Under the pieces are notes generated by a model. The model was not told where the DNA came from, did not search any database, and was given only the letters and a program-made list of their open reading frames with translations. This document shows positions 23,287 to 55,419 of a stretch of 64,000 nucleotides of DNA, piece by piece. The position numbers and the translations under genes are program-made. Position 1 is the first letter of the stretch; each line of letters opens with the position of its first letter. Source of the stretch: a candidate division WWE3 bacterium UBA1401. Lineage in GTDB: Bacteria > Patescibacteriota > WWE3 > UBA101185 > UBA10185. The DNA lies in the NCBI GenBank assembly GCA_002305115.1, contig DBQF01000001.1, positions 160,916-224,915 on the forward strand, read 5' to 3'.

Positions 23287-24309
23287 TTAATCCAAGACCT
23301 CAAACCTAACCCCATAACGGGACAAAAACCCCTTCATCCCTTCCCAGCCCTCACTCTCACTAAACCTAGTTTCCTTACTCTTAATATCAAACCAACACTT
23401 ACCAGTTACATCCAGTGCCTTTCTAGTTTCTTCACTAATACCTTCAAGTACCACATAAACATTCCCTTCAAACTCTGTCATACCTTCCAAAGACTTCTTA
23501 TACATATATCTTGTTGAATTTACTGACACAGTAATACCCTTCTCCACGTCACTAATTGCTGCGGGCTCGCCTTTGAATTCACAAAACTCTGCAAATGATC
23601 TGAAAATTGTTAGTAACATCTCATGCTTTTTCTCTGCCGAAGGCTCCCTAATAAACTGTCTGCCCCTTAATAACACCTTTGCTGGAAACCCCGATGCCAA
23701 TGAGTGATCTGGAATATTTGCAGTTACCACCGAATTAGCCCCAATAACACTACCTTCCCCAATTTCCACATTAGGCAAAATAAACACCCGCCAAGGCAGC
23801 CACACTTTTTTCCTGATTGTAACCGGGCCAAACGTTACAGGATAACCATCCAGCATAGATAACCACGAACTATGTGTAAAAATATAACTGCCACCGCCAA
23901 CTCCAACGTCATCTTCCAAAATAATTGGCTCAGTGGGGTTAATAAAACTAAAAGAAAAAATTTTGGCCCGCTTTCCCATACTAAGCTTTGATCTGGGTGT
24001 TAACATACCGCCAATAGTTACCTGATCTAAAATAATTGAGTCATCATCCATTTCAAGCTCTGCCAGTTCTGCCGCCACCATCATCTTAATACTCACCCGT
24101 TTGCCCAGTTTTATCTTGTGGGCATCGATATAACAAATATGCCCAATTTTTGTATAATCGCCGATTTCTATTTCTTTAGCATTTAGTATGGAAAAAAAGC
24201 CAAACGAAACATGCTTTCCTATCTTGGCTCCTTTTGCTTTGTAATACAGCTTTTTTAATGGAGACGGCAACAAACCGATGGTTGCCATCTTGATAACCGG
24301 AACGGCCAT
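23287..24309 (-). CDS. left-handed beta-helix (hexapeptide-repeat) acyltransferase with extra C-terminal domain
   Basis: Hexapeptide stretches GAKIGKHVSFGFFSILNAKEIEIGDYTKIG and PNVEIGEGSVIGANSVVTANIP, plus a non-LbH C-terminus of about 100 aa. Confidence 0.75.
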   Translation of the reverse strand: MAVPVIKMATIGLLPSPLKKLYYKAKGAKIGKHVSFGFFSILNAKEIEIGDYTKIGHICYIDAHKIKLGKRVSIKMMVAAELAELEMDDDSIILDQVTIGGMLTPRSKLSMGKRAKIFSFSFINPTEPIILEDDVGVGGGSYIFTHSSWLSMLDGYPVTFGPVTIRKKVWLPWRVFILPNVEIGEGSVIGANSVVTANIPDHSLASGFPAKVLLRGRQFIREPSAEKKHEMLLTIFRSFAEFCEFKGEPAAISDVEKGITVSVNSTRYMYKKSLEGMTEFEGNVYVVLEGISEETRKALDVTGKCWFDIKSKETRFSESEGWEGMKGFLSRYGVRFEVLD

Positions 24310-24310
24310 A

Positions 24311-24679
24311 TTAATCCTTTCTAACCACTACAGCTACAGCCACACACATGCCTGCAGCGTGAGTTAAACTAACTTGTGTAACGTACTTAGAGGCTAACTG
24401 TTCAGGCAAATGTGCAAATGGTACGCCAGATTCATTATTAGTTATTTCTACCCCCTTACAATGAATATTAAACTCATCCAGAGAGTTCAAGGCTTTAATA
24501 ACAGCTTCCTTGCAGCAAAACCTCACGCCTAAATGCTGAGCAGGTTCTTTTTTTCCAAAACAATAAGCAAGTTCTTTTTTCGTGAAGATTTTGTCTAGGA
24601 AAGTCTGGTTAGGCCTATCCTCAGTTTCGCTAAATTTTTGACTGTCCTGAATATCTATGCCAATGCCAAATGTATTCAT
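24311..24679 (-). CDS. acpS: holo-ACP synthase (4'-phosphopantetheinyl transferase)
   Basis: GIGIDIQD, FTKKELAYC, CKEAVIKAL and VSLTHAAGMCVAVAVV. ATG 24679 overlaps the upstream stop as ATGA. Confidence 0.8.
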   Translation of the reverse strand: MNTFGIGIDIQDSQKFSETEDRPNQTFLDKIFTKKELAYCFGKKEPAQHLGVRFCCKEAVIKALNSLDEFNIHCKGVEITNNESGVPFAHLPEQLASKYVTQVSLTHAAGMCVAVAVVVRKD

Positions 24680-25902
24680 ACAACAAGCTCTACTTTGCGG
24701 GCAAAAGTTGCTAATAAATCTAGTCCGTCCCAATAATTAGAAAACGTAAGTGCTTGGCCGAAGGGCACTACCCTACAAATCCCTCTGGGCTTATTTTCCT
24801 TAATAAACGTGCTCAACTGTTCCTTAGTGATACCAAAGGCGCTAAGTGTCTGATCTTTGGTTTTAAGAAAGTTACCCAGTTCTGCTAATTCACTAATAGT
24901 TGTTTCATAAAAAAGCCCACCTCCACAATGGGCATCTCTGGAAATATCTTCAAAAGACTCAATGAAAACTCGGTTAATAGCATTAGAGGCGCTTTGTTCT
25001 ACCGTAACCTGACTTTTAGCATTGAATATGGTTTGCACTTCAGCAGTTAGCTTTTGTACTGCTACAGCCGGTTGGACTGGTACATTCTTTGTTGTTATAT
25101 ATTCTTCCAGTAACTGCCAGAAAATGTTTCTTGCCGGTGTAATGTCTTTTTCCGCACCACACCATACCACAAGTCTTGGTGATGAACAGGCATTTTGATC
25201 AAACCAGAATGCGTCGTTATAAAAATATGCAATTGTTTCCTCCTTATTTGTATGGGCTAACCACTGTTGAGCATCAATTACTGCATAAGAAAATCTGTCT
25301 GGAAAAACTACTTCTAGTGCTGTAGGGTTAAGTTCTAGTGCCCTAATACTTTTGATAGTTGCGTCGCCACCCCAGATAATACGTAAATCACATTGCTTAG
25401 AGAAAAACTCTGTTACTTCCGTATCGTGCCCATACCTTAGTAAGGCAGTTGTGTTTCTAAGTTGCTCAAATTGTTCTTGAGCTAGTATATTATTCAAAAT
25501 TGCCAGTAAGGTCTCAAGCTGGTCACTGGTTTTAGAAGAGAGTCTTACAATGTTAGTGTTACCTACCAGCAAGGAGATAAACCAGGAGTACACAAAAATT
25601 GTGTCTACGTTTGCCGGGGCTATATGAAAAGCCAAGCCTCTAGGTACTTGAATGTAATCTGCGTTACTGTTTATAAACTGTTCTTGTAGTTGCTTTATGT
25701 GTGCTGATCGCATCCAATAGGCTAAGGCAATAAGTTCAGGATATTTTCTTAAACTGTGGTCTTTCAAAATTGTTTCCGAAACGATATTTATAAACTGCAG
25801 GGTAATTTTTTCAAAAGGCTCTAGCGGTTGTGCCGCCACTACTTTGGCAAGATCACCTGTGAGTGGGCATATAAGTTTGACTTTATCCTTAAATATATCC
25901 AT
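24676..25902 (-). CDS. LuxC-family acyl-CoA/acyl-protein reductase
   Basis: HIAPANVDTIFVYSWFISLLVGNTNIVRLSSK and DQNACSSPRLVVW (catalytic Cys region). ATG 25902 lies 1 nt after the upstream stop. The 25989 start would overlap the previous gene by 86 nt. Confidence 0.8.
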   Translation of the reverse strand: MDIFKDKVKLICPLTGDLAKVVAAQPLEPFEKITLQFINIVSETILKDHSLRKYPELIALAYWMRSAHIKQLQEQFINSNADYIQVPRGLAFHIAPANVDTIFVYSWFISLLVGNTNIVRLSSKTSDQLETLLAILNNILAQEQFEQLRNTTALLRYGHDTEVTEFFSKQCDLRIIWGGDATIKSIRALELNPTALEVVFPDRFSYAVIDAQQWLAHTNKEETIAYFYNDAFWFDQNACSSPRLVVWCGAEKDITPARNIFWQLLEEYITTKNVPVQPAVAVQKLTAEVQTIFNAKSQVTVEQSASNAINRVFIESFEDISRDAHCGGGLFYETTISELAELGNFLKTKDQTLSAFGITKEQLSTFIKENKPRGICRVVPFGQALTFSNYWDGLDLLATFARKVELVV

Positions 25903-25903
25903 G

Positions 25904-26971
25904 CTAAACAGCGGCTGTATCACTACAGCCCCTAAGTTCCGCTTTGGGAATGCGGCCGGCGACCCTGAAATATTTGCCGTATCTGCCACAAGGGCAAGTA
26001 TCTTCCCCCATTATAGTACCAAAGTCTTCGGTAAGAAGTATGTGGCCGGGATAACTGTGTGGCAACACGGAAAGTATTTCGATGATGCCTTGGGTACCAT
26101 GCGGGAGTATTTGCCAATTGGCAGGATCCCTTATAAGTATGTCCGAAAAAACGGAAGTGTGGAAGTTGCCTTCTTCACATTCCATAAAAACAGAACCTAC
26201 CTGTTCGGCCATGCCGTAAAAATTATATACATGTTTAATACTCAATTGTTCTTTTAAGTGCGCTTTAAATGTGCCATTATCCACGCTTTGTTCTATTAGC
26301 TTTTTCCACCCGCCACTATGAACTAAGATGGCATTTGATAAATCTAATTTGATGTTTTTAGCAGTCAACTCTTTATACAAATATAGCCAAACCAGATAGG
26401 TAAACCCAAAAATCAAATTTGGCTCATTTTTGTACTTTTCTGCAAACTCCAGTAGTCCCTCGATATCCATGTTCATGTCTTCGTCTAGCAGGTAAAAGTG
26501 ATTTTTTCCAAAAGTAGCAAACCCTAAAACACCAGCACCTCTGGCGGAAAAGCTTTCTTTATCTTTAAAGACCGCTTTTGTATCTACAAATATGGTGGGT
26601 AGCCGTTCTTTGCCTATAAAATCTTGCACAATATGGGCCAGCGCCTTGGTTTGTCTTTCTGAGGTTAGCTTGTCTAAATAAATAGCCGAGGGGGTTTGCC
26701 CGGTAGTGCCTGAGGATTTAAGTATTTTAATAACGGCACTTTCGTTAACGCTTGTTAGCTTGTTTGTCTTAAAGACCGTTACCGGCAAGAACGGGAAGTC
26801 CTCGACTGCCGTTAAGTTGCTTGGATCACAAAAAGCTTTTGCAAACTTACTATATTCAGGGCAATTTGCTATGTGATGTTGGGTTACCGCTGTTAAGGCT
26901 TCCAAAAACAACGGTTTTTTCTGCGCTGCTTTTAAGCTAAATGGTGGATAGCCAAATAAATCTTCTATCAT
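25904..26971 (-). CDS. LuxE-family acyl-protein synthetase
   Basis: SSGTTGQTPSAIYLD and the overall LuxE pattern. 4-nt overlap with the upstream ligase gene. Confidence 0.8.
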   Translation of the reverse strand: MIEDLFGYPPFSLKAAQKKPLFLEALTAVTQHHIANCPEYSKFAKAFCDPSNLTAVEDFPFLPVTVFKTNKLTSVNESAVIKILKSSGTTGQTPSAIYLDKLTSERQTKALAHIVQDFIGKERLPTIFVDTKAVFKDKESFSARGAGVLGFATFGKNHFYLLDEDMNMDIEGLLEFAEKYKNEPNLIFGFTYLVWLYLYKELTAKNIKLDLSNAILVHSGGWKKLIEQSVDNGTFKAHLKEQLSIKHVYNFYGMAEQVGSVFMECEEGNFHTSVFSDILIRDPANWQILPHGTQGIIEILSVLPHSYPGHILLTEDFGTIMGEDTCPCGRYGKYFRVAGRIPKAELRGCSDTAAV

Positions 26972-28380
26972 ACTGTTACATTCCTAAATATCTGTTCGTA
27001 AGCCATTTTTCCGGTACCGGTTCGTGCTAGTTCCTCTACATAAACGATGGTAATTACGTTGGGGTTTAGCTTATATTTTTGCTGCAGTTGCCTTTTTAGT
27101 TCTTTTTCCGGTACTTGTTTAGTGAAAGCAATACATAAGGCGTCATCTTTACCTCCACAAGCGCATTCGTAGCCCTGTTGTTTCAAAAAATTTTCTAGGT
27201 CATCAAGGTTAAATAAAACGCCCATCATTTTCAAAAAGCGCTTACGTCTGCCAGTAATATAGCAAAAGCCATCTTCATCAAAATGTGCAATATCTCCGGT
27301 AAGAAGTGTGCCATTTTGCTCATCTCCTTTAGCTAAATCTGTTCGGGAAGTTGCATAGCCCATCATGACATTTACACCTCTGTATACTAGTTCCCCGTCA
27401 ATAAATGGTTTGGTTATAGTGTTGCCATTGGTGTTTATTATGCTCAGGTTGCCCCCCGGAATGGCTTTTCCTACACTTGTAGGTTTTACCAAAGTATACT
27501 CTGGTGGTAAGTAAGCTATGCGGGCAGTAGCCTCTGTCTGTCCGTACATAACATAAAACTTTATACCTTTTGTTTGGGCATAGCTTCCAAAGTCTTGCAC
27601 GAGCTGCGCGTTAAGTTTACCTCCTGCTTGAGTCATATATCTTAGACTAGGAAGTTCCATATCTAGAAAGCCTATTCTTTTTAGTAGTTCGTAAGTGTAT
27701 GGAACTCCGCTAAAAGAAGTAGCTTGCTGGTCTTTAAAAAATTGCCAGAAATCTTTGGTGATAACTGAGTGGTCTGTTAACAGCATAGTAGCCCCGGCTA
27801 ACAAGTGGCTATTTAAAATTGACAAACCGTAGGTATAGTTTAGCGGAAGCGTAGTTATAGCTTTTTCCGAACGGGTAATTGCTAAATAAGCTACTATGGC
27901 TTGCGCATTAGCTAGCACACTTTCACCTTTAAGCCTTACCAGCTTAGGGTTGCCTGTACTTCCGGAAGTTGATAGTAACAAGTTTAGGTCCGGGTTCAGT
28001 TGTTCTTCACTAGGCTTAGGGTTTTGAACTAGTTGATAGTTTGCGTGAGTATAGATAGCCTTGTCACCAAATGTATTGGTGTTTTTCGGTTCCCAAATGT
28101 AATCCGGCTGATATGTATCTACCAAATTAGCCAACAGCTGTACATCTATATCAGCAGCAAGTAGCAAGGCCACATTATCTGATCTTAGCGTGCCAAGATA
28201 TCCGGCTATAGCTACTACAGTATTTGTGCAAAGGATAAACACTAAATTCTTTGGTTTTGCTGTAAGTTGCCTGGCGAAGGTGTCTGCAAGTGTGGCAAGT
28301 TTGCTGTACGAAATACTTTCTAAACCGGTAACTAACGCAGTACTTTCTGCAAATTTTTCAATGGAATCAAAAACTTTCAC
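26968..28380 (-). CDS. AMP-dependent synthetase/ligase (adenylate-forming, acyl or aminoacyl loading)
   Basis: LLSTSGSTGNPKLVRL, YGQTEAT, TGDIAHFDEDGFCYITGRRKRFLK and C-terminal GTGKMAY. Confidence 0.85.
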   Translation of the reverse strand: MKVFDSIEKFAESTALVTGLESISYSKLATLADTFARQLTAKPKNLVFILCTNTVVAIAGYLGTLRSDNVALLLAADIDVQLLANLVDTYQPDYIWEPKNTNTFGDKAIYTHANYQLVQNPKPSEEQLNPDLNLLLSTSGSTGNPKLVRLKGESVLANAQAIVAYLAITRSEKAITTLPLNYTYGLSILNSHLLAGATMLLTDHSVITKDFWQFFKDQQATSFSGVPYTYELLKRIGFLDMELPSLRYMTQAGGKLNAQLVQDFGSYAQTKGIKFYVMYGQTEATARIAYLPPEYTLVKPTSVGKAIPGGNLSIINTNGNTITKPFIDGELVYRGVNVMMGYATSRTDLAKGDEQNGTLLTGDIAHFDEDGFCYITGRRKRFLKMMGVLFNLDDLENFLKQQGYECACGGKDDALCIAFTKQVPEKELKRQLQQKYKLNPNVITIVYVEELARTGTGKMAYEQIFRNVTV

Positions 28381-29135
28381 ACAAGCATCCCCCCGTTAAC
28401 ACCTATTACCTGCCCGGTAACATAGGATGCTAAGTCGGAGGCTAGATATAAAGCACCGCCCGCAATATCTTCCGGAGTACCTATCCTGCCAAGTTTGATG
28501 GCGTTAAGTTTTTCGGTAAAAGCTTGTTCCGGAATTGATCTGGCCATAGCTGTGTCGATAAAGCCCGGAGCTATGGCATTTACACGTACATTGTATCTAG
28601 CCAGTTCTTTTGCCGCAGATTTAGTGAGCCCAACTACTGCCGCCTTGGTTCCGCTATATGCTACTTGTCCAATATTACCTTCTACCCCCACAATAGACGC
28701 CAGATTGATAATGCTCCCTTGTTTTTGCTTCATCATTATTCTGGAAGCATATTGCATGCAGTAAATTGTGCCAAAGACATTAACTGAAAATAGCTTGGTA
28801 AGAATATCCGGGGAAATCATTGGCAATAGTGCATCTATCATAATGCCAGCATTATTTACTAAAACGTCCAGTTTCTCAGAATGTGCTTTAACCTTGTCAA
28901 ATGCTTGCTTAACTTGCTCACTATTGGAAACATCAAAGTATAGGGGAGTTATTTCCACTTGATATTTGTCTGTTAATGCTGTGGCTATACTATCCAAGCT
29001 GCCTTCCACTACATCATTGGCAAATACCGCAGCACCATTTTGAGCAAACATTTCCAGAATACCCTTACCAATACCTTGTGAGCAGCCAGTTATTAGTGCT
29101 ACTTTACCTGCAAGTAACTTAGAAGTTAACACCAT
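28377..29135 (-). CDS. short-chain dehydrogenase, 3-oxoacyl-ACP reductase (FabG)-like
   Basis: GKVALITGCSQGIGKG, NNAG and YSGTKAAVVGLTK (YxxxK). ATG 29135 overlaps the ACP gene by 17 nt; the track start 29165 would overlap by 47 nt. Confidence 0.85.
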   Translation of the reverse strand: MVLTSKLLAGKVALITGCSQGIGKGILEMFAQNGAAVFANDVVEGSLDSIATALTDKYQVEITPLYFDVSNSEQVKQAFDKVKAHSEKLDVLVNNAGIMIDALLPMISPDILTKLFSVNVFGTIYCMQYASRIMMKQKQGSIINLASIVGVEGNIGQVAYSGTKAAVVGLTKSAAKELARYNVRVNAIAPGFIDTAMARSIPEQAFTEKLNAIKLGRIGTPEDIAGGALYLASDLASYVTGQVIGVNGGMLV

Positions 29136-29358
29136 ACTTAGTAAGAATTTCTTTAGCGGCAGCAAAAGAGCTAAGGTTGATTACGTCGTCTGTACTTAAA
29201 GTGATACTAAAAGTGTCATCAATAGCAGCAACTAAGCTCATGTGGGCAATGGAATCCCATTCGGGTAGTGAGTGATATTTTAAGTCATCGGTAATTTGCT
29301 CTAATGGCAAGCCAAGTGAATCGGCAAAAACTTGTTTTAGTTTAGAAGTAGAGTCCAT
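29119..29358 (-). CDS. acyl carrier protein
   Basis: 79 aa. LPEWDSIAHMSLV carries the DS(L/I) phosphopantetheine-attachment serine. Confidence 0.8.
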   Translation of the reverse strand: MDSTSKLKQVFADSLGLPLEQITDDLKYHSLPEWDSIAHMSLVAAIDDTFSITLSTDDVINLSSFAAAKEILTKYGVNF

Positions 29359-29375: not shown

Positions 29376-31502
29376 TTACATTTTAGTTTGCAAGGTGAGT
29401 GAATCTAGTTCGTAAAAATAAAATGGCATACTACGTGTGTAGTAATGGGTGGGGGGCACCATGCATTTTATGGCATCAGGTAAATTGATACCTGTTACAC
29501 TTGTGATAGGTAAGAATTCATAAGTGTGGGGGCTGCAATCCGGAGCCAGATTGTAGTGGCTATAATAGTGAGTTAGTTTTTGTTCATTAGTTAACACACC
29601 CTCAAGTTGTAATGGCCTGTCTGATAGTAAATAAGTCTTAGCGTAGTGAGTTGTCAGCTCTGCAATTTGGGGAAGTTGTAGCTGCTGGGGGGTGTCTAGA
29701 ATAAAGGTATTTAAGTCATAATAGTATTTAAAGGGCCCCATAGTAAAGGTACTGAAGTTATCAAAATAGCGTTGCGGTTTGGATTCATCCGAATGACCAC
29801 GATACAGTAATAGCAAGTCATTAGCTGTTACTGAGGCATTAAGCTTGTTGTAAACTTCACCGTAACCCATTTCTGGTCCTTGAAGTAGTGCGCCAGTAAA
29901 CACGCTAAAATAACCTATTATAAGAACCAAACAGCTTAATAACACCACTCTAGTTTTTTTAGCGTGTGCTAAAGCTATTCCTAAATAAGTACCGGCAAGG
30001 GCGATGATATAGGGAATAAGCTCACTAAAAAAATATCGAAAATCGTAGTAATAATATCTGATAGTCCATATGTATTCCGTATTCACAGCGAAAAAGAAGA
30101 GAATGAATAGCCATAGATACATGAATTTTGGTTTTAATTTGTCTGGTAATTTTAGTAACGGCAAGATGGCAAAGATGCCAAGTAACAATGGGCCTACTTG
30201 TGCAAACATTGTATATGCCAGTATGTATTTAACTTTCTCCCAGGCGAATCTGTAAACGTACCACTGCCTCTCCAAGACAAAGTCTGGGAAGTTTGCAGGT
30301 GTGAAGCTTTGTTCAGCAAGTTTGTAAAAATTAAGCCCTATAACGGCGAGTAGCCCTAGAACAAAAAAATACCTGTAATATTGCAGAATATTGGTCTTTA
30401 ATTTTGTGAGTCTATTTTGGTTACTCAAATAATATAATATTCCCAAGCTAGCGATCGTAAGGATTGTGTATGCTGTAACTCTTGTTACCGGTTCCTGGCC
30501 TAGTATCTTTTGCAATGTGCCTGAGTAAACAAGATGAAACAGTGGTGGGATCTGATAATAGTAGAACGCAAGAGAATTTCCAACCATCCCTATTAGTGCA
30601 ACAAAATACAGCAATAATGCCTTTTTCAATCTGAATTCTTGCGTAAATAGTATAGTACAGGCGGCTAATAAGATAACAATTGGGATATATAGAAATGAAC
30701 TCATGCGGGTATAGCAAAAGCAATTAAACAAAGCTGCAGACAAAACCAAATTCCGCGTGTTAGCGCCTTTATCTTCAATAAATCTATATAGATAGTACGC
30801 AGTAAACACTATAAAATACACTGCTAACATTTCGCTTACCGGTAGTTTAGAAAAAAAGACGTGGCTTGGGGAAATGGCTACAAGCAATGCTGCAAGATAC
30901 CCGGGTAGCTTTTTTCTACCTGCAATTTCATAGCCTAGCAAATAAAAACCGATAATAGACAGTATGGAAAAGAAGGTAAGTGCTAAGGTTGACAAGTTTT
31001 TACCCACAAAAGCTTCAAACATGGCCAGCCATGCTGGATGAAGCGGATAGAATTCCATGGTATATTCTGAAGCTGCTCTGTCCCAGTACTTTATACTTGG
31101 CATTAAGTATGGATTGTGCTTGTCGTAGAGTTCTTTTTGCTCAGGAGTCAGGCCTTCCCTGAAAGCGTCTTTATACTTTAGCTGGCCGTTTCTTATGTAC
31201 TGATGGGCAATATTTACATAAGTGCCCTGATCCTGGCCGCCCATAATGTATTGATAAGGTCTAAATCGTAGTATAAGGGCTAGTGCTATAAGCAGCCAGA
31301 TATGCCAGCTGAATCGACTATCGCGCAGTTCTAACTTAAAATTGCAAACCCTAACAATAAGTAACTGTAGAGCTAAACTTAGCAGGACTGTAGTTACAGG
31401 GTTAAATATTTTCAGAATAAGTAGACTAATTGCCACAGTACTGACGATTACAGTAAAAACACAGATATTATCGATTATGTAAATTGGTTTTTTGCTTTGC
31501 AC
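29376..31502 (-). CDS. polytopic membrane protein, GT-C-type (ArnT/PMT-like) glycosyltransferase candidate
   Basis: At least 12 hydrophobic segments. The first loop GGQDQGTYVNIAHQY resembles the acidic-x-x-Y loop of ArnT/PMT enzymes. Soluble C-terminal domain of about 150 aa. Confidence 0.55.
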   Translation of the reverse strand: MQSKKPIYIIDNICVFTVIVSTVAISLLILKIFNPVTTVLLSLALQLLIVRVCNFKLELRDSRFSWHIWLLIALALILRFRPYQYIMGGQDQGTYVNIAHQYIRNGQLKYKDAFREGLTPEQKELYDKHNPYLMPSIKYWDRAASEYTMEFYPLHPAWLAMFEAFVGKNLSTLALTFFSILSIIGFYLLGYEIAGRKKLPGYLAALLVAISPSHVFFSKLPVSEMLAVYFIVFTAYYLYRFIEDKGANTRNLVLSAALFNCFCYTRMSSFLYIPIVILLAACTILFTQEFRLKKALLLYFVALIGMVGNSLAFYYYQIPPLFHLVYSGTLQKILGQEPVTRVTAYTILTIASLGILYYLSNQNRLTKLKTNILQYYRYFFVLGLLAVIGLNFYKLAEQSFTPANFPDFVLERQWYVYRFAWEKVKYILAYTMFAQVGPLLLGIFAILPLLKLPDKLKPKFMYLWLFILFFFAVNTEYIWTIRYYYYDFRYFFSELIPYIIALAGTYLGIALAHAKKTRVVLLSCLVLIIGYFSVFTGALLQGPEMGYGEVYNKLNASVTANDLLLLYRGHSDESKPQRYFDNFSTFTMGPFKYYYDLNTFILDTPQQLQLPQIAELTTHYAKTYLLSDRPLQLEGVLTNEQKLTHYYSHYNLAPDCSPHTYEFLPITSVTGINLPDAIKCMVPPTHYYTRSMPFYFYELDSLTLQTKM

Positions 31503-31507
31503 GTTAG

Positions 31508-33412: not shown

Positions 33413-33472
33413 ACTCACATATCATACTAGTAAGGGGTTTATATCTGCAAACTGAGGGGTTATTATTATGTT

Positions 33473-41201: not shown

Positions 41202-41271
41202 ATGCTTTCCAGAAGCTTATAGCCTCATAATCTTATCATGAGTTACCAGCTTTGTAATGTGCCGGATTAAT

Positions 41272-41279
41272 TGTATCAT
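41272..41279 (+). promoter_or_regulatory. -10 box for the leaderless AsnB-like gene
   Basis: TGTATCAT ends 6 nt before ATG 41286, the start that yields MCGIAG. Confidence 0.5.
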
Positions 41280-41285
41280 TGGCGT

Positions 41286-48205: not shown

Positions 48206-50101
48206 TCAATTAAAATTTAGAATGTACACACGTTTATTTTGCATGGGAACTGTAATAGCTCCCCTTTCATCATAAGCGCAGTTTTTGGCAAACGTGGCAG
48301 TTTCCTCATAGCCTTCTAGATCTACGAAAACTAGTGCGTCGTATTCGGGGGGATCAAAAGTTTTCTCACACGTATAGTGTTTAGGTTTTATAAAGAGGGT
48401 TTTATTGTCCGTTAACGCTTTTTGATGTTTTTTAGCTGGTACCCAGTCTTTTAGGCCCCAAAATGTTTCACTGGTTGTGCTTGTGTCTTCCCGAAAAACT
48501 GCTAATAACTCTGCGGACATATTAGTTGGCACAATGATCTTGCTACTAGTATCTATGAGTTTGGCGATGCTGTCATATTCAAGGAGATAACCGTATCTGT
48601 CTGCAAGATATGCCTGGCCATACACACTTGGCCCTGGAGACCACAAGTATTTGTAGGTAATAGCTAGCGAAACCACGCAATAAAGCACCGTAAACATTGC
48701 AGAGGAGCCATTTCTTGCTAGAGTGTTTCTTGCAAATAATATGATTACAAGTAGACCGGCTAATACTAAAGTAACTGCTATTTTTACAGTCACAAATGTA
48801 TCGTCAAAACGAAGCTGTATAGCTGATGTTATTAGTATAAGCGCTAATAGTATTGTAGCTTTTGTTCGAGAAACCGCGCTTTTGAAGAACAAGATAAGAA
48901 ACATAAAAGTTGTAGGATATAACGGTATAAGATATCTATTCGTGTGATGGAGTATTGAATAAAAGATGAGGTAGCTTAACTGGAAGACAGACATAAGCTT
49001 AATCAGTTTGCTGTATCCGGATTTTCTAGATAAGACCACTAAGGCATAATATGTTGATGGGATAATGACGATAAAGGGAAGAGACATCCATCCGAATGTG
49101 TCTGTGTGCAGCAGTATTAGCAAATAGTCATAGCCTGTTTTCACAAGTTTAGCTGTTATTGTTCCTAATGTGTTGTTTACCGAAACAAGCTTGTTTGATT
49201 GAATTGCCGCTACTATGTCACCATTCCCTTGTTGGGCTAGATCATTAGTTATAGCTGTCACTCCCCCCGCCAAAGAGTTTTGTGTATAAGTTAAGAGGTT
49301 TTTATTTCGAGTTAACATAGTAGCGTAAGCAAGGTAGATATTTAGGGGGATAAGATTAGTAACAAACATTACTACTGTGAATAAAATAGGCAGACTAAAA
49401 GTAAGTAGTATTTTTTTGATGAAGGTCAAGATGTTAGCTAGACGGACTGATCCACGGGTCTGAATAAGTTCAATTAGTTCATAAATTACAATTGCAAAAG
49501 CAAATGCTATAAATACGTACTCTTTGGCGTCCAGTAGCACTGTTAACCATATAGACACTATAAACCTGTTTTTTACGTTAAAGTAAATATATAGACTTAC
49601 TATAAGTGCCAGCAATAAGGGTATTTCCCGAAGAAATGTTGGTGTAACCAGCAAGAACCGCTGGCTCGTAGCAAATAACGCCAAGCAAGCAATACTCCAC
49701 CATCCCAGCTTTAGCCTATTTCTTAGCAGTAGAAAGTATAGACTACATGTCAGTACTGCCAGCACAACATTATATAAAGTTGCTGCCTCTATTGATGGTC
49801 CGGTGAAAAAGTAGATCAACGCTGCCGGTAGTTTGAATAGAAAACCATGCATTCCAACCCCATAAGATCCAATCCACTTTCCCGCAAGCAGGGCTTTGTG
49901 CATAACTACAGATTCAAGCAAATAAAAAGCCTCATCAGATATAGGCGCTCTGTAAAAGGCAGTAATGACTGATCCGTACAGTGCCACATGAATGCAGATT
50001 GCTACTGCGGCAATAGCAATATTACTTTCCTTGGCCAGGTAGTTACACAAATTTTTGGTATGTTTAGTTATCTTAGTTATTAAGTCTGTTAGTAGTGGCA
50101 T
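48206..50101 (-). CDS. polytopic membrane protein, GT-C-type glycosyltransferase candidate
   Basis: 631 aa with at least 12 hydrophobic segments. First loop PISDEAFYLLES (DExxY-like). Soluble C-terminal domain. Confidence 0.55.
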   Translation of the reverse strand: MPLLTDLITKITKHTKNLCNYLAKESNIAIAAVAICIHVALYGSVITAFYRAPISDEAFYLLESVVMHKALLAGKWIGSYGVGMHGFLFKLPAALIYFFTGPSIEAATLYNVVLAVLTCSLYFLLLRNRLKLGWWSIACLALFATSQRFLLVTPTFLREIPLLLALIVSLYIYFNVKNRFIVSIWLTVLLDAKEYVFIAFAFAIVIYELIELIQTRGSVRLANILTFIKKILLTFSLPILFTVVMFVTNLIPLNIYLAYATMLTRNKNLLTYTQNSLAGGVTAITNDLAQQGNGDIVAAIQSNKLVSVNNTLGTITAKLVKTGYDYLLILLHTDTFGWMSLPFIVIIPSTYYALVVLSRKSGYSKLIKLMSVFQLSYLIFYSILHHTNRYLIPLYPTTFMFLILFFKSAVSRTKATILLALILITSAIQLRFDDTFVTVKIAVTLVLAGLLVIILFARNTLARNGSSAMFTVLYCVVSLAITYKYLWSPGPSVYGQAYLADRYGYLLEYDSIAKLIDTSSKIIVPTNMSAELLAVFREDTSTTSETFWGLKDWVPAKKHQKALTDNKTLFIKPKHYTCEKTFDPPEYDALVFVDLEGYEETATFAKNCAYDERGAITVPMQNKRVYILNFN

Positions 50102-51274
50102 TTAACTTAGTAGTAGTTTAAATATATCTAGAAAAGTCGCATTTGAGGTTTCTTTGCTTAAGTGCTGTATCGCATATTCACGCGCTTGCTTTGCTGATTG
50201 CTGTAAGAATTCTGGCTGTCTAGAGATTTCCGCCATAGCCTTAGCCAACGCCTCAGCACTGCCTGTTTTGCATGTTTTTATAAAGTCAGCGTGTGTTTCC
50301 AGCTGGGCGAACACCGGAATATCCGAAGTTATGCAGTATAGACCACAGCTTAGGGCCTCTGCTAGGGTTACCGGAAAGCCCTCAGCATGTGAGGGTAAAA
50401 TAAAAACGTCATTATTATTGTATTGGTCTGGCATCTGGTCATTTGGAATAACTCCCCGTAAGCTAATGTTTGACGCCATAGAGTGATCCATAATCTGCTG
50501 TTTGATATAGCTTTTTAGGGGGCCATTCCCCACCATATCAAGATGTATATTTGGTAGCTGGGCTTTGCTTAGCCTAATTGCTTCGACAAGCTCAATAACT
50601 CCCTTGCTCTCAATTAGAGATCCTACGTATATAAATCTTGGCTGTTTATAATCTTTATCCGAATTTGGGGTAAATTTATCTGTGTAAACGCCTGTTGGTA
50701 TGACATATACTTTTTTTGCATAGCCTAGTTTTTCTACTTTGGCTTTTAGTATTTCACTTACAACGGTTGCTTCATCTACGTGGCTTAAGATAAATTTCTT
50801 AAGGGTAGTAGAGATGGGGTCATTAAAACTGTTAATGTCACTTCCCCGCATGGTTAACAGAATTTTCATGTTAGCCCTTGTTAATAGTTTTACAACTACT
50901 GCAACTAACCCAGAGGGTAGAATCCAGTTGGCGTGTATAACACGTATTTTGTTTGTCTTGATGGTTTTTAGTGTGGTTATACACTGGGCCAAAAAGTAAA
51001 AAGGCACGAGCAAGAGTAGTGCCTTATTACGCATTATATTAGCAAATATTCCTTCCCCTGTGTTTAATCCGAAGTCCCCAAATGGTAGGATCATATGCCG
51101 ATATACTTCAATATTATTCAGTTTTTCATGGGGCAAGCTATTGGCACATCTGTGTGTTACTACAACCACATCATACCTCTGGCTTACATACTTAATAAGA
51201 TCAAGTAGGAAGTGTTGGCCAGTTTGCAAAGCGTTAGGGAAAGACGTTGTTAAGTAAAGTATCTTTTCGCTCAT
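50102..51274 (-). CDS. GT-B fold glycosyltransferase, family 4
   Basis: ILPSHAEGFPVTLAEALSCGLYCITSD. Abuts the downstream gene with 0 nt spacing. Confidence 0.85.
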   Translation of the reverse strand: MSEKILYLTTSFPNALQTGQHFLLDLIKYVSQRYDVVVVTHRCANSLPHEKLNNIEVYRHMILPFGDFGLNTGEGIFANIMRNKALLLLVPFYFLAQCITTLKTIKTNKIRVIHANWILPSGLVAVVVKLLTRANMKILLTMRGSDINSFNDPISTTLKKFILSHVDEATVVSEILKAKVEKLGYAKKVYVIPTGVYTDKFTPNSDKDYKQPRFIYVGSLIESKGVIELVEAIRLSKAQLPNIHLDMVGNGPLKSYIKQQIMDHSMASNISLRGVIPNDQMPDQYNNNDVFILPSHAEGFPVTLAEALSCGLYCITSDIPVFAQLETHADFIKTCKTGSAEALAKAMAEISRQPEFLQQSAKQAREYAIQHLSKETSNATFLDIFKLLLS

Positions 51275-51357
51275 ACATTAGTGATTAACACCTATTTTGC
51301 AAAAAAAGCAGTACATATGCTAATACTATCACATTAGAACTTAATAGCTATATGCAC

Positions 51358-51363
51358 TATAAT
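51358..51363 (+). promoter_or_regulatory. -10 box for the leaderless wbpB-like gene
   Basis: TATAAT ends 6 nt before ATG 51370. Confidence 0.5.
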
Positions 51364-51369
51364 AACTTT

Positions 51370-52347
51370 ATGATTCAAAACACATCTTGTAACTTTGCAC
51401 TTATTGGAGCTGGTGGTTATATTGCTCCCCGTCACTTAAAGGCTATCAAGGATACAGGTAACAAACTTGTTGCAGCTGTAGATCCTAAGGATTCAGTTGG
51501 TATTTTGGATGGTTATTTCTTTGATGCCGAGTTTTTTACCGAATTTGAAAGATATGAATCTTTTGCAGAAAACCTACGCAAGCAGGGTGATGCCCATAAA
51601 ATTCAGTATGTAAGCATTTGCACCCCTAATTATTTGCACGAGCACCACATGTTATCTGCACTTAGGCTTGGTGCCAATGTTATTTGCGAAAAACCATTAG
51701 TATTAAATACTGCAGGGCTAGATAGAATTATTGGCTATGAAAAGACCTATGCTGAAGGCAAAATAAATACGGTCTTACAGCTCCGGCTTCATCCGGCAAT
51801 CCAAGAACTAAAAGCCAAAGTCGATGCAGATACTTCTGGTTCTATTTACGATGTGGATTTAACTTACATAACTCCTAGAGGTAAATGGTATTTTGAGTCT
51901 TGGAAAGGCTATGAATACAAATCCGGCGGTCTCGCCCTAAATATTGGTATTCATTTTTTTGATATGCTGATTTGGATTTTTGGTAGTGTGAAAAACGTGG
52001 TTGTGCACAAGAGTACACCGTCTATGATGTCGGGGAGACTAGATTTAGCGAAAGCTTCAATTAGGTGGTATTTGTCACTTGATCAGGCAGATCTTCCTGA
52101 AGAGAACAAAGCTCAAAATAAGGCATTCAGAAGTTTATCGCTTAATGGTGAAGAGTTTGCCTTTTCCGAAGGTTTCACAGATTTACATACTGAGGTTTAT
52201 AAGAAAGTATTGGAAGGTAAAGGGTTTACGCCTGAAGATGTGAGGTCTGCTATTGAGTGTGTTGAAACGATGCGAACTGCCCCATTTGTTGAAGCTGATA
52301 TTGACAGTAAGCATCCATACCTTGTTGACAGCTTTGATCGTCACTAA
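51370..52347 (+). CDS. wbpB: Gfo/Idh/MocA oxidoreductase, WbpB/WlbA-like UDP-N-acetylglucosaminuronate 3-dehydrogenase candidate
   Basis: NFALIGAGGYIAPRHLKAIKDTGNKLVAAVDP closely matches the WbpB N-terminus as I remember it. ATG 51370 lies 6 nt after TATAAT; the track start is 51352. Confidence 0.75.
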   Translation: MIQNTSCNFALIGAGGYIAPRHLKAIKDTGNKLVAAVDPKDSVGILDGYFFDAEFFTEFERYESFAENLRKQGDAHKIQYVSICTPNYLHEHHMLSALRLGANVICEKPLVLNTAGLDRIIGYEKTYAEGKINTVLQLRLHPAIQELKAKVDADTSGSIYDVDLTYITPRGKWYFESWKGYEYKSGGLALNIGIHFFDMLIWIFGSVKNVVVHKSTPSMMSGRLDLAKASIRWYLSLDQADLPEENKAQNKAFRSLSLNGEEFAFSEGFTDLHTEVYKKVLEGKGFTPEDVRSAIECVETMRTAPFVEADIDSKHPYLVDSFDRH

Positions 52348-52363
52348 CCAAATTTGTAAGCTA

Positions 52364-53911
52364 ATGAAAAAGACTTGTATATACTGTGCACTAATTTTAG
52401 TAACTGCTTCTGCGTTTTTTACTTATAGGTATATCAAGGATTCGACTTATAAACCTTTGGATTTAACATTGAAGGTGGATTTTGGTAAAGACTTGGGTCA
52501 GTCTGTTGGTACCTTACTTACAATAAAAGACAAGAGCTTAACTCCTGTTATTGGTGTCGGATTTCCTGATACGTACAGTACTTCAATAAGGCATAATAAC
52601 AGACTATTAACACTATATTATAAAGGCAACTGGTTTCCTGTCTATACTAAAAAGCGCTTAGCTAAGCCTTTTCCTGATAAAGCCGGAGTAAGAACACTTA
52701 ATCTTGGTAACAAATTATGGGCGTTTCCAGAAATTTCCAGAACTACCTATAGAGAACTAGATGTTGTAACTGACGAGTGGTTGGCACCCCAGGCAACAGA
52801 AACTCAATTTATGGGTATTCAATATGTTAACAATTTGCCCTTGGTATTTGCGGACAGGCAGGTTTTATATAATGGCAAAAACCTTATACCTAACCTAGAG
52901 CAAGACACCATTAAAGAATTTTACTATGTTGATGGCAAGTTGTTTATTTTTGTACGTTCCGAAAATTCCCAGTTATATGTTTGTACTTGGGATAGTTATG
53001 TGTCAGATCAGATTGACATAACTAGATGTGAGTCCTTTGGTTTACATGGTTATCATGCAGCAGTATTTGCTTTTGGCAATTTGGATGGTGATGTGATTAT
53101 GGCTTTGAACACTGGTAATATCTTCAGGTATCGCAATGGGGAGTTGAGCTATTTATTTGAAAACACAGAAAAGCTTAGCAACCAAATGTATTCTTCGGTA
53201 GTTTATTACGATAACTTGTTTTTTGGCCACTATCCTACTGGAAATTTGCATGTATATGATGGCGAGACTTTGCATAATTTCGACTCAGCCACGTTTCCGG
53301 GTGCCCCAGAAGTTCCCAAACGGGGAAATGAACTGCAGTCTTTGGCGCTGTATGGTGGTGATTTGTATGCGGGGCTTTGGCCCTTTGGAAGACTATGGAA
53401 GTACAATTATCATAGTAACTCCTGGAGTTTGGTAGACAGATTCTTTACAGCTCCCCCGGTTTTTAGCGGCAGAGTTGGTTTTGAACCTTATGCCGATGAT
53501 GTACTTGCAAGAGATTTAGCTATAGAAAACAATGCCTGGGGCCAAAGAATCTTGTCGCTCACGCCATTCATGGATTCCTTATATGTTAGTACCTGTAATA
53601 AAAGAGGCGAATATCTAAATGCTGCTGAAGACCAGTTTATAGAATCTGAAGTGCTTGAGGAGTACGGGTTGGTTTGGCAGATCAAAAACGGTTATAACAT
53701 GACGTGCCCCTTTGAATGGCCTCAGGAAGAATTGGAGCTAACAATTAGTGTTAAAGAAGATGCTTTGGAAGTATATAGCGGTGTAACTTTGCTTTGTAGT
53801 TTGCCCATTGATTCTGCACACACACTGTCCAAGCCCGAGCTTGGCGAAGTTGTGGTTGGTAAGGGCTCCTTCGGTGACTTTAATGGCGAAAGTATTAGCT
53901 TAGTAGACTAG
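52364..53911 (+). CDS. signal-anchored orphan protein (515 aa), beta-rich, function unknown
   Basis: MKKTCIYCALILVTASAFFTY anchor at ATG 52364; the 52253 start would overlap the previous gene by 95 nt. It has repeated aromatic/Gly-rich beta-like segments. Confidence 0.55.
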   Translation: MKKTCIYCALILVTASAFFTYRYIKDSTYKPLDLTLKVDFGKDLGQSVGTLLTIKDKSLTPVIGVGFPDTYSTSIRHNNRLLTLYYKGNWFPVYTKKRLAKPFPDKAGVRTLNLGNKLWAFPEISRTTYRELDVVTDEWLAPQATETQFMGIQYVNNLPLVFADRQVLYNGKNLIPNLEQDTIKEFYYVDGKLFIFVRSENSQLYVCTWDSYVSDQIDITRCESFGLHGYHAAVFAFGNLDGDVIMALNTGNIFRYRNGELSYLFENTEKLSNQMYSSVVYYDNLFFGHYPTGNLHVYDGETLHNFDSATFPGAPEVPKRGNELQSLALYGGDLYAGLWPFGRLWKYNYHSNSWSLVDRFFTAPPVFSGRVGFEPYADDVLARDLAIENNAWGQRILSLTPFMDSLYVSTCNKRGEYLNAAEDQFIESEVLEEYGLVWQIKNGYNMTCPFEWPQEELELTISVKEDALEVYSGVTLLCSLPIDSAHTLSKPELGEVVVGKGSFGDFNGESISLVD

Positions 53912-55419
53912 CTAACATTCAGTTGCTCCAAGTTATAAGCTGCTGGCCCGTGTATAACCTTTCCATCAACACTAAACCTAGACCCATGACATGGGCAGTC
54001 CCAACTAACTTCAGCAGTATTAAAACTAATAGTGCAGCCCAAGTGTGTACAAGTTGGCTTTATAGCGTGTATGTTACCTGCGGGATCCCTATAAACTGCT
54101 ATCTTTTCACCTTCCCACTCAATAATATGGCCTTCTCCTTGTTTAATACTGTCTAGTTTTTCCTTTGGTACACTTTTAAGTTTGTCTTTCACGTAAGTTT
54201 CTGCTACGCGCAGATTTTTCTTAACAAAACTTCCTGCTTTCTTGAATTGTTCAGATCTTGCCGGATTAAAAACCTCTGCCCATGAGTTGCCTTTTTTTGC
54301 AATAAGATCAGCCAGCAGCATACCCGAGACAACTCCATTAGTCATGCCCCAACCACCAAAACCCGTAGCTGTGTAAATATGTTCGGTTGAGGGTGTGATT
54401 TTACCAATATAGGGTACATCATCTAGCGTATGGTTATCCTGAGTAGCCCAGAAATATTCAATACTTGTTACATTGAACGTAGTTTTCACCTTGTCGGCTA
54501 GATTTTGGTAGTACTTATTTGTATTAATTTCATGCCCTGGTTTGTGCCTGAATCCGGTAAAGATATGTAAAGGGCCTTTATCTGTTGGTTGTGGCCTAAT
54601 TGAAAAAAGTGGCTCTTCGCTGTTTATGTACATGCCTTTTATGGGATTATCTTTTAAGTATGCCGCAATCACATAAGACCTGTATGGCGTCAGCCTGGTA
54701 AAAAACATACCCTTATTTAAAATTGGGTAATGGGTAGCCAGTACTAAGTCTTGTGCCTTAAATTCGCCTCTACTGGTTTTAATTATGCAGGGCTGCCCAT
54801 CTTCAAAATCTTGTACAATTGTGTTTTCCAAGATGCTAACATTCTGCTTTATAAGCTGTTGCACAATACCCAGTAAGAATTTTCTGGGGTGAAAGTGTGC
54901 CTGGTTTGAAAACTCAATAGCTCCTTTAACCGCAAATGGTAACTCGGTTTGTACTGTAAAGCTGGCAGGCAAACCTAATTCCTGTGCAGTGGCTACTTCT
55001 TCTTTTATAAGTTGTAGATTTTCTTTTTTTTGCGTATATGTAACTGCCGGGGCTTTAACAAAATCACATTCAATTTCATGTTTTTTCGCAATTTTCTCAA
55101 CTGTATCTATAGCTTGTTGCTGTGCTTGCCCGTATAGTTTCGCAAAGTCTTTGTCGAAAGCTTTAGCTAGTTTTGCGTAAATTAGTGTGTGCAGGGAAGT
55201 AAGCTTGGCTGTAGTATGTCCGGTAACATCCTGAAGTACCTGATCTCGTTCAATTATCAAAATACTTTTGCCTAAGGTGCTAAGAAAATAAGCGGTCATT
55301 ATGCCTGCAATGCCTGCCCCTGCAATAATGACGTCGTATGTTTTTGAGTTGTTAAAGTATATTTCAGGATTAGTAGTTGTAGCCAACCAATAGGATGTAT
55401 GTTTGCCTTCCAGCTCCAT
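53908..55419 (-). CDS. FAD-dependent oxidoreductase fused to a C-terminal Rieske [2Fe-2S] domain
   Basis: DVIIAGAGIAGIMTAYFL (GxGxxG) and CTHLGCTISFNTAEVSWDCPCHGSRF (CxH...CxxH). Confidence 0.85.
   Translation of the reverse strand: MELEGKHTSYWLATTTNPEIYFNNSKTYDVIIAGAGIAGIMTAYFLSTLGKSILIIERDQVLQDVTGHTTAKLTSLHTLIYAKLAKAFDKDFAKLYGQAQQQAIDTVEKIAKKHEIECDFVKAPAVTYTQKKENLQLIKEEVATAQELGLPASFTVQTELPFAVKGAIEFSNQAHFHPRKFLLGIVQQLIKQNVSILENTIVQDFEDGQPCIIKTSRGEFKAQDLVLATHYPILNKGMFFTRLTPYRSYVIAAYLKDNPIKGMYINSEEPLFSIRPQPTDKGPLHIFTGFRHKPGHEINTNKYYQNLADKVKTTFNVTSIEYFWATQDNHTLDDVPYIGKITPSTEHIYTATGFGGWGMTNGVVSGMLLADLIAKKGNSWAEVFNPARSEQFKKAGSFVKKNLRVAETYVKDKLKSVPKEKLDSIKQGEGHIIEWEGEKIAVYRDPAGNIHAIKPTCTHLGCTISFNTAEVSWDCPCHGSRFSVDGKVIHGPAAYNLEQLNVS

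Follow-up and report, generated by a model that had tools for sequence, protein, structure and literature searches.

A putative composite cell-surface glycan island, with a conserved core and variable tailoring modules, in a bacterium of the candidate phyla radiation

Positions 23287-55419 of the 64,000-nucleotide stretch of contig DBQF01000001.1 analysed here (the window) hold a locus of about 32 kb that appears to direct the synthesis of a surface glycan. On the open reading frame (ORF) map it comprises 27 genes, G1 to G26 and a gene for a 79-residue acyl carrier protein (ACP), which fill half of the window, leave almost no intergenic space and switch strand about 12 times. A preliminary description of this DNA had proposed a glycan locus of this extent, and annotation with Pfam, which it recommended as a check, and with NCBIfam reproduced nearly all of its domain calls. 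On balance, we regard the locus as a composite cell-surface glycan island, in which a conserved core is combined with tailoring modules that vary between lineages. Its genes are listed below; the domain calls come from Pfam and NCBIfam profile scans of the window ORFs, values in brackets are E-values unless given in bits, and GT denotes glycosyltransferase.

23287..24309, minus strand: G1, 340-residue left-handed beta-helix (LbH, hexapeptide) acyltransferase (Pfam Hexapep 8e-11)
24311..24733, minus strand: G2, 4'-phosphopantetheinyl transferase of the AcpS type (Pfam ACPS 2e-14; NCBIfam holo-ACP synthase)
24676..25989, minus strand: G3, LuxC-family acyl-CoA/acyl-protein reductase (Pfam LuxC 7e-28)
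25904..26971, minus strand: G4, LuxE-family acyl-protein synthetase (Pfam LuxE 2e-61)
26968..28380, minus strand: G5, 470-residue AMP-forming ligase, presumed ACP loader (Pfam AMP-binding 4e-42)
28377..29165, minus strand: G6, FabG-like short-chain dehydrogenase (adh_short_C2 2e-62; FabG models 265 bits, below cut-off)
29119..29358, minus strand: ACP, 79 residues, DSI serine motif at residue 35 (NCBIfam ACP 8e-6)
29376..31502, minus strand: G7, multi-pass membrane protein of 708 residues in which a GGQDQG loop is conserved; probable PMT_2-like GT-C
31508..33418, minus strand: G8, class-II (N-terminal nucleophile, Ntn) glutamine amidotransferase fused to a WbuX/WbpG-type PP-loop domain
33473..34834, plus strand: G9, PaaK/CapK-like adenylate-forming carboxylate ligase (NCBIfam DVU1553-family, FlxY, PaaK)
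34831..35499, minus strand: G10, TylF-type O-methyltransferase (Pfam TylF 1e-20)
35505..36584, plus strand: G11, 359-residue multi-pass membrane protein, candidate polymerase or ligase
36572..37735, plus strand: G12, 387-residue membrane protein with a soluble C-terminal part, overlapping G11
37635..38954, minus strand: G13, Wzx-type flippase of the multidrug/oligosaccharidyl-lipid/polysaccharide (MOP) superfamily (Pfam Polysacc_synt 2e-10, Polysacc_synt_3)
39013..40107, plus strand: G14, DegT-family sugar 3-aminotransferase of the WbpE/QdtB clade (Pfam DegT 3e-121)
40104..41201, minus strand: G15, 365-residue GT2 with two C-terminal transmembrane helices (Pfam GT2, N-terminus only)
41271..43175, plus strand: G16, WbpS-type (eps_aminotran_1) AsnB amidotransferase (Asn_synthase 7e-98; TIGR03108 1e-192, below cut-off)
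43129..44253, minus strand: G17, GT4 (Glycos_transf_1 2e-30)
44299..45009, plus strand: G18, class-I S-adenosylmethionine (SAM) methyltransferase (Methyltransf_11 1e-11)
45013..45822, plus strand: G19, class-I SAM methyltransferase (Methyltransf_11 1e-13)
45815..47113, plus strand: G20, MurJ-family MOP flippase paralogue (Pfam MurJ 2e-27)
47088..48197, plus strand: G21, GT4 (Glycos_transf_1 4e-31)
48206..50101, minus strand: G22, 631-residue predicted GT-C-fold glycosyltransferase, family not covered by Pfam
50102..51274, minus strand: G23, GT4 abutting G22 (Glycos_transf_1 4e-31)
51352..52347, plus strand: G24, WbpB/WlbA-type UDP-sugar 3-dehydrogenase, GFO_IDH_MocA family (PDB 3oa2 6e-98)
52364..53911, plus strand: G25, N-terminally anchored extracytoplasmic beta-propeller protein, 515 residues (predicted structure)
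53908..55419, minus strand: G26, flavin adenine dinucleotide (FAD, DAO) and Rieske oxidoreductase, boundary gene (DAO 1e-41, Rieske 3e-15)

Five of these proteins, G7, G11, G12, G22 and G25, have no family match in Pfam or NCBIfam. The enzymes named in the preliminary description are recovered: a WbpB-like 3-dehydrogenase (G24), a DegT aminotransferase (G14), an LbH acyltransferase (G1), WbpG-like and AsnB/WbpS-like amidotransferases (G8, G16), a CapK-like carboxylate ligase (G9), one TylF-type and two class-I methyltransferases (G10, G18, G19), the ACP acyl module, one GT2 (G15), three GT4 (G17, G21, G23) and two MOP flippases (G13, G20). G20, at 89 bits against TIGR01695 (cut-off 236), is by this score not the housekeeping MurJ. 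For comparison, 86 related loci anchored on members of the G22 family were assembled, of which 36 extend over at least 12 kb and are referred to as large.

The locus contains part of the Wbp/Wlb route to UDP-ManNAc3NAcA, a pathway of five enzymes, WbpA, B, E, D and I (PMC10622841). G24 matches the WbpB structure 3oa2 over residues 14-324 and 3o9z at 4e-93; because the next unrelated oxidoreductase family in the PDB reaches only 4e-13, its identity as a WbpB is solid, and it shares 57-59% identity with homologues in L054, L081 and L086. The aminotransferase had been described as WbpE/ArnB-like, and its PDB matches (7b0d 4e-117, QdtB 2e-97, WbpE 5e-88, ArnB only 3e-48) group it, by sequence, with the sugar 3-aminotransferases QdtB and WbpE; its counterparts in L054 and L081 are 64-65% identical. 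In relatives a WbpD-like gene lies between those for WbpB and DegT, as in L054, whereas here the sole LbH enzyme of the locus, G1, closes the ACP operon. G1 is 31% identical over 176 residues to the WbpD-like protein of L054 and is 100 residues longer. The other two enzymes were sought in the window and not found: for WbpA there was neither a UDPG_MGDP_dh match among the ORFs nor any tblastn hit with the dehydrogenase of L081, and for WbpI neither an Epimerase_2 match nor a hit with the 2-epimerase of relatives, a gene that is present in L054, L088, L089, L111 and L164. The ORFs scanned (at least 90 codons) also gave no match to Bac_transf, Glycos_transf_4, Wzz or Wzy profiles, and tblastn with PglC and WecA seeds located no phosphoglycosyl transferase in the window. 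The same absences (WbpA, WbpI, an initiating transferase, a chain-length regulator and a recognisable Wzy) had been reported beforehand and are borne out for the window by profiles and, except for Wzz and Wzy, by tblastn.

Two amidotransferases bear on the nature of the sugar. G8 begins with an MCGIFG class-II glutaminase (GlmS N-domain match) and carries SGGRDS at residue 340; residues 280-612 match the WbuX/WbpG model TIGR03573 at 1e-40, with 140 bits against a cut-off of 203, and PDB 8wex is matched at 4e-14. A full-length homologue with 50% identity is encoded at 789-2654 of L094, adjoining a G15-like GT2 gene. L088 has separate His_biosynth and GATase genes, unlike the fused Ntn glutaminase of G8. 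G16 has eps_aminotran_1 (TIGR03108) as its best family and probably starts at MCGIAG, five codons downstream of the 41271 call. WbpS is a member of this family and produces a uronamide (PMC7468200). It follows from the presence of two carboxylate-modifying enzymes, together with the UDP-sugar 6-dehydrogenase (16 of the 36 large loci) and 2-epimerase (7/36) of relatives, that the uronic acid predicted at the outset is a plausible reading of these sequences. In Porphyromonas gingivalis the Wbp/Vim linking sugar, 2-N-seryl-3-N-acetylglucuronamide, is a Wbp diamino uronic acid that is amidated by WbpS and modifies surface proteins. The best family of G16 is the likeness between the two systems; the window encodes neither Vim proteins nor a type IX secretion system, and the envelopes and transferases differ.

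The second recognisable block is the acyl module of G1 to G6 and the ACP. G3 scores 37 bits against the LuxC equivalog (cut-off 750) and G4 74 bits against LuxE (cut-off 550), and no LuxD acyl-transferase is found among the locus genes; by these scores the two proteins are family-level relatives only of the LuxCDE fatty-acid reductase complex. A cassette of ACP, FabG, ligase, LuxE and LuxC is known from Aeromonas group II flagellin glycosylation islands (PMC7874193), and in Vibrio cholerae O1 the five-gene tetronate set VC0248-VC0252 acylates an amino sugar (PMC3441752). The module in the window has both the protein families and the gene order of the Aeromonas cassette. The tetronate set is functionally comparable and its ligase, WbeL, has 471 residues against the 470 of G5. 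Among the compared cassettes the acyl product is known only for V. cholerae. The window differs from both in having a dedicated phosphopantetheinyl transferase and the 340-residue LbH transferase attached. None of the 86 related loci contains an ACP/LuxCE module.

What recurs in relatives is a core of about seven genes: G14, G24, G15, the GT4s, G22 and G7. In the large loci a G23-like GT4 is found in 24 of 36 and a G21-like GT4 in 21, followed by the G15-like GT2 (13), G7-like proteins and DegT (12 each), WbpD-like proteins (9), WbpB (7) and AsnB (5). Synteny of the core is seen in L054, L081, L086, L087, L089, L109, L111, L155 and L164, and the order WbpB-WbpD-DegT-(WbpA)-G7-G15-G22 in L089, L109, L111 and L155. 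G15-like genes are found at 55-62% identity in 16 related loci and lie no more than 150 bp upstream of a G22-like gene in 7 of these 16. G17 is 42-43% identical to GT4s of L081 and L086, and G23 is 37-38% identical to GT4s adjoining G15- or G22-like genes in L081, L086 and L087. Homologues of G9 are present in four G22-type loci, and those of G8, G9 and G16 occur sporadically beside G15-, G22- or G7-like genes (L094, L108, L091, L114, L164). For G10, G18, G20 and G26 there is no homologue in the 86 loci. The core thus recurs, and the ACP module and these four genes are found nowhere else in the set, which together give the picture of a conserved core with variable tailoring. It also follows that nothing ties G26 to the glycan system: the FAD-Rieske oxidoreductase noted at the locus end is present, with both of its domains, but its connection to the locus is not upheld. 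Nor is the locus one conserved unit, as had been assumed. A locus split among relatives had been named in advance as evidence against a glycan locus of this kind, and this is in part what is observed, the core being kept and the ACP/LuxCE module being absent elsewhere.

The centre of the core is G22. A word-index search found 11 matches, and in the resulting alignment of 12 members (G22 included) none has a Pfam match; one is labelled 'RgtA/B/C/D-like' in one source, but current Pfam models miss it. An AlphaFold2 model built on this alignment (pLDDT, the predicted local distance difference test, 79.5; pTM, the predicted template-modelling score, 0.83) was compared with the PDB by Foldseek, and the best 31 matches are all GT-C proteins, with ArnT first (3e-6) and STT3, ALG9/12, PglB, PMT, DPY19, AftB and Emb among the others; TM-scores are 0.29-0.50 for the top 20. 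Directly after the first transmembrane segment, the residues R51, D56, E57 and Y60 are invariant in the family alignment, and this position is the usual site of the catalytic acid in GT-C enzymes. On the strength of its model, G22 is a GT-C-fold glycosyltransferase that lies outside any Pfam GT-C family.

The neighbouring G25 had been taken for an anchored orphan. Its anchor is upheld by the AlphaFold2 model (pLDDT 90.8, pTM 0.90), in which an N-terminal membrane helix precedes an all-beta domain whose top Foldseek matches are beta-propellers, but it is no orphan: the word-index search gave two relatives only, and an exhaustive HMMER search gave 309 representative clusters at E<=1e-3, of which 83 reach E<=1e-30. 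The start of G25 is likely at 52364, and the public gene call has 529 residues. Two proteins, P0147 and P0148, are G22-like GT-Cs fused to a G25-like domain, residues 25-521 matching G22 (1e-56) and residues 613-1072 matching G25 (6e-78). Through these fusions a Rosetta-stone link joins the two, and G25 is, from the sequences, a probable partner of the G22 GT-C. One stand-alone G25 homologue lies in an unrelated gene context, and in the relatives P0146, P0150, P0168, P0188 and P0192 the propeller is fused to other N-terminal domains that by eye are peptidase-, esterase-, glycoside-hydrolase- or beta-helix-like. Taken together, these contexts indicate that the G25-type domain is a general extracytoplasmic module and suggest that it is directed at carbohydrate or the envelope.

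At least two GT-C-like proteins had been expected in the locus. G22 is one by predicted structure and G7 probably another by homology, but for G11 and G12 the profile scans give no family match. G7 has no Pfam, NCBIfam or PDB sequence match; it is a full-length homologue (25% identity, 6e-45) of a protein in L089 that has a weak PMT_2 match, and is on this ground probably a PMT_2-like GT-C. A relationship of G7 to G22 was rejected (hhalign probability 5%). G11 has about 9-11 hydrophobic segments and overlaps G12 by 13 nucleotides in a different frame. A homologous pair occurs in L127 (13952-15939) and L163, at 29% identity and with the overlapping two-ORF layout kept, which marks G11 and G12 as a genuine gene pair and not a frameshift. 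That the pair might be a frameshifted paralogue of G22 was considered, with a pairwise BLAST E-value of 0.004 between G12 and the C-terminus of G22, and discarded at an hhalign probability of only 7%.

G15 is a candidate polyprenyl-phosphate sugar synthase of the AglJ/ArnC/GtrB kind. Its NCBIfam matches, all below the curated cut-offs, are AglJ (6e-15), PpgS (1e-8) and dolichyl-phosphate hexose transferase (4e-4), and hhalign gives its N-terminus a probability of 94% to ArnC and GtrB against 0.3% to WcaA. The protein carries an insertion of about 50 residues. An initiating phosphoglycosyl transferase is missing not only from the window but also from all 36 large related loci, as probed with PglC and WecA seed sequences. 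These seeds match 13 and 4, respectively, of 80 control loci (unrelated DegT loci) and are therefore usable as probes.

The genomic setting fits a small genome and a resident island. Upstream, the island is flanked by housekeeping genes (FtsK, RuvX, MiaA, MiaB-like, YceG), and the window as a whole has a GC content of about 40% and no feature in tRNA and Rfam scans. GC at third codon positions is 0.31-0.41 in the island and 0.28-0.39 in the housekeeping flanks; recent horizontal transfer was rejected for want of such a compositional signal, and the island is accordingly taken to be resident, not lately imported. The proteins of the window are singletons in NCBI and Logan data, all on one contig of 544,424 bp, of which the island makes up at most 5.9%. 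Named relatives of the FtsK fragment at 59-62% identity come from Curtissbacteria, Daviesbacteria, Woesebacteria, Gottesmanbacteria and a 'Patescibacteria group', and metagenomic ones reach 80%, from which we infer that the host is a Microgenomates-like bacterium of the candidate phyla radiation (CPR). This placement and the contig size fit the small genome guessed at earlier. Among species-representative genomes the DegT locus nearest to that of the window belongs to a metagenome-assembled genome of Candidatus Saccharibacteria, and a WS6 genome carries a G22 relative. A cyanobacterial origin, to which b6f-Rieske and Hps names among the NCBIfam matches had pointed, was rejected on the strength of the FtsK relatives and of these Saccharibacteria and WS6 loci. 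CPR bacteria (Patescibacteria) are mostly uncultured epibionts with tiny genomes, whose surfaces mediate attachment to hosts and to phages. To our knowledge they have no lipopolysaccharide (LPS) or outer membrane, so the glycan would not be an O-antigen.

From homology, fold assignments, gene neighbourhood and conservation a scheme can be drawn that is conjectural as to substrates, sequence of reactions, acyl group, lipid carrier, acceptor and number of products. G24 would oxidise C3 of UDP-GlcNAc or UDP-GlcNAcA, and G14 would aminate C3 to give a UDP-2-acetamido-3-amino sugar. The ACP, G5, G4, G3, G6 and G2 may make a short acyl-ACP of an unusual kind, probably hydroxylated: the ligase would load the acid, LuxE and LuxC would reduce it, and the short-chain dehydrogenase would carry out another reduction. 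G1 could then put this ACP-borne acyl on the 3-amino group, replacing the acetyl that WbpD adds in relatives. G8 might turn an acetamido into an acetamidino group, G16 amidate the C6 carboxylate to a uronamide, G9 adenylate a carboxylate for amide or ester formation, and G10, G18 and G19 methylate. The membrane GT2 G15 and the GT4s G17, G21 and G23 would work on the inner side of the membrane to build intermediates linked to a lipid, the GT4s assembling an oligosaccharide, and the flippases G13 and G20 would carry these intermediates across. G22, and probably G7 too, would pass the sugar or glycan on to an acceptor outside the cytoplasm, which may be cell wall, lipid or protein, with the anchored propeller G25 as the acceptor-side partner of G22. 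For the G15-G22 pair we prefer a route like that of ArnC/ArnT or AglJ, by way of a polyprenyl monophosphate sugar; it would then be understandable that these loci almost never have a phosphoglycosyl transferase.

This preference finds its closest parallels in the Arn (ArnB/ArnC/ArnT) and Gtr (GtrA/GtrB/GtrX) systems, PpgS with its GT-C, and the Agl system of Haloferax (AglJ, GT4s, the AglR flippase and the GT-Cs AglB and AglS). Shared with these are a membrane GT2 with C-terminal transmembrane helices in tight linkage to a GT-C and to an aminotransferase sugar pathway, MOP-type flippases, and the absence of a phosphoglycosyl transferase from the window. The differences are that G15 falls below all curated cut-offs and has its long insertion, and that G22 and G7 fall outside the GT-C families described so far; the three GT4s point to an oligosaccharide and not a single sugar. 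A small flippase of the GtrA or ArnE-F type was not found in the locus, which has no spare intergenic space or small ORF.

It is a further and tentative step, taken with less than even confidence, to propose that G15, G22, G7 and G25 constitute an undescribed glycosylation machine, widespread in CPR, which installs Wbp-type 2,3-diamino (uronic) sugars via polyprenyl monophosphate carriers and does not need a phosphoglycosyl transferase. If this is true, archaeal-style logic would be at work in bacteria that have no outer membrane, and the parts of the machine would be a GT2 resembling AglJ and ArnC, two GT-C families for which Pfam has no model, and, as partner, a beta-propeller that in some proteins is joined to the GT-C in one chain.

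Several points weigh against this proposal and the scheme behind it. In two of the 86 loci a phosphoglycosyl transferase adjoins the G22-like gene, a PglC-type or WecA-type gene standing beside the GT-C at 6589-7152 of L153 and 1941-2735 of L157. Some members of the G22 family may therefore work with diphosphate-linked glycans, and because of these two transferases an undecaprenyl-diphosphate route with a distant initiating enzyme keeps some likelihood. The role given to G15 comes from sub-threshold profile matches and topology, and in sequence searches of the PDB, those against solved GtrB, DPMS and ArnC included, alignment is confined to the nucleotide-binding part at its N-terminus, the first 50-60 residues or so. 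Roles for G7, G11 and G12, as GT-Cs or otherwise, come from sequence and context and not from fold. Two enzymes appear to require a carboxylate, yet WbpA was not found in the window. The mechanism as a whole is a prediction from genes, and the dozen or so strand switches, with an ACP module that has no counterpart in the related loci, allow for several products; the single 'highly decorated' product put forward in the preliminary description is an inference only.

Among the alternatives, the one that survives best, unlikely but to be taken seriously, is a classical Wzx/Wzy-type heteropolysaccharide locus for which other parts of the genome encode WbpA, WbpI and the initiating phosphoglycosyl transferase. 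On this view G15 would be a GT2 of the ordinary sort, whose acceptor is an oligosaccharide linked to undecaprenyl diphosphate, and G11, G7 or G22 would be the polymerase and/or ligase. Assembly of a repeat unit fits two MOP flippases, three GT4 and one GT2, G11 with its 10 or so transmembrane segments is the size of a Wzy, and the PglC- and WecA-type genes of L153 and L157 are to be expected. Nor is the missing initiating transferase, which is absent from the window as first noted, as telling as it was made to appear: such an absence is common in glycan loci, many O-antigen loci lack the initiating enzyme and those of Escherichia coli depend on a distant wecA. Wzy proteins, moreover, are highly divergent. 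Against these considerations stands the lack of phosphoglycosyl transferases in every large related locus, although the seeds detect controls. The tight adjacency of G15 and G22 is the arrangement of polyprenyl-phosphate synthase and GT-C pairs, no locus protein matches a Wzz or Wzy family, and CPR bacteria have no LPS to take an O-antigen.

Among the known systems closest to the island are the wbp cluster of Pseudomonas aeruginosa O5 and the wlb cluster of Bordetella, which provide UDP-2,3-diacetamido-2,3-dideoxy-(gluc/mann)uronic acid and with which the window shares a WbpB-type 3-dehydrogenase, a WbpE-clade aminotransferase and a WbpG/WbuX-type amidotransferase, and of whose enzymes related CPR loci hold full WbpA-B-D-E (+I) sets. 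By comparison with O5, the window has no WbpA, WbpI, close WbpD, WbpL-type initiating enzyme, Wzy or Wzz, and its host has no LPS. G8 draws on glutamine through an Ntn domain in the same chain, whereas in the O5 cluster separate HisH/HisF paralogues supply the ammonia.

It is improbable, to a greater degree, that two or more independent systems simply lie side by side, with the Wbp/G15/G22 core on one hand and, on the other, an unrelated ACP/LuxCE module together with amidotransferases and methyltransferases, all acting towards different end products such as a lipid or a cell-wall component in modified form. Such an arrangement would account for the ACP module, G10, G18, G20 and G26 having no counterpart in related loci and for some 12 transcription units on alternating strands. 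It sits poorly with the recurrence of G8, G9 and G16 homologues beside G15-, G22- or G7-like genes, with the position in the ACP operon of G1, the only WbpD-like acetyltransferase candidate in the window, with the glycan association of the ACP cassette in Aeromonas, and with the continuous gene packing and uniform third-position GC.

Very improbable, finally, is a dedicated protein-glycosylation system in which G22 and/or G7 are oligosaccharyl- or O-glycosyl-transferases acting on secreted or lipid-anchored proteins, possibly the Pro/Thr-rich small proteins encoded at 19847-23225: the G22 model does match STT3, PglB, PMT and DPY19 as well as it does ArnT, the best profile match of G15 is AglJ of archaeal S-layer N-glycosylation and the locus is directly adjoined by six small ORFs whose products look secreted or lipoprotein-like, but a match to the GT-C fold does not tell acceptor types apart, the small-ORF block differs in GC and was not seen in the relatives examined, and this reading overlaps the one preferred here, from which it differs in the acceptor only.

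The block at 19847-23225 is of some interest in itself. Its six ORFs (113-203 residues, GC 0.46-0.52 against a background of 0.40) abut G1; three have lipobox-like signal peptides, two a membrane anchor and a Pro/Thr-rich linker, and one is Cys-rich. They have no Pfam match and no mutual similarity; the block may encode acceptor glycoproteins or be a small island gained from elsewhere.

To return to the composite glycan island with a conserved core, its chemistry modules (Wbp, WbpS, WbuX and tetronate-type) are of known kinds that are here extended. New are the host lineage, the GT-C family of G22 and probably that of G7, for which no Pfam model was detected, the link between GT-C and beta-propeller, the fusion of glutaminase and WbuX, and the apparent independence from a phosphoglycosyl transferase. 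Since the island takes up to about 6% of the contig, its glycan probably matters to the cell. Handles for further work are the conserved pairing of a GT2 with a GT-C, which the family databases of today leave unannotated, the Rosetta-stone link of GT-C and propeller, and the prediction of a 2,3-diamino sugar that bears acyl, amidino and amide groups.

Outside the locus, another GT-C with a Pfam PMT_2 match (4e-6) is encoded at 59823-61553 on the plus strand, which brings the GT-C-like membrane proteins in the window to at least three and possibly five; 3' of it, 61652-63610 encodes a 652-residue soluble protein without a family match. On the other side, 5' of the housekeeping genes, a plus-strand cluster at 2868-9181 encodes a TraG-D_C/DUF87 ATPase (803 residues), an 882-residue protein without a family match and an FtsA-like protein, with a possible role in secretion, DNA transfer or division. 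A minus-strand ORF of 162 residues at 56382-56870 aligns with the AI-2E transporter profile over the C-terminal half of that profile alone (182-323 of 327 positions) and looks like a gene remnant, the full-length paralogue lying at 14141-15139.

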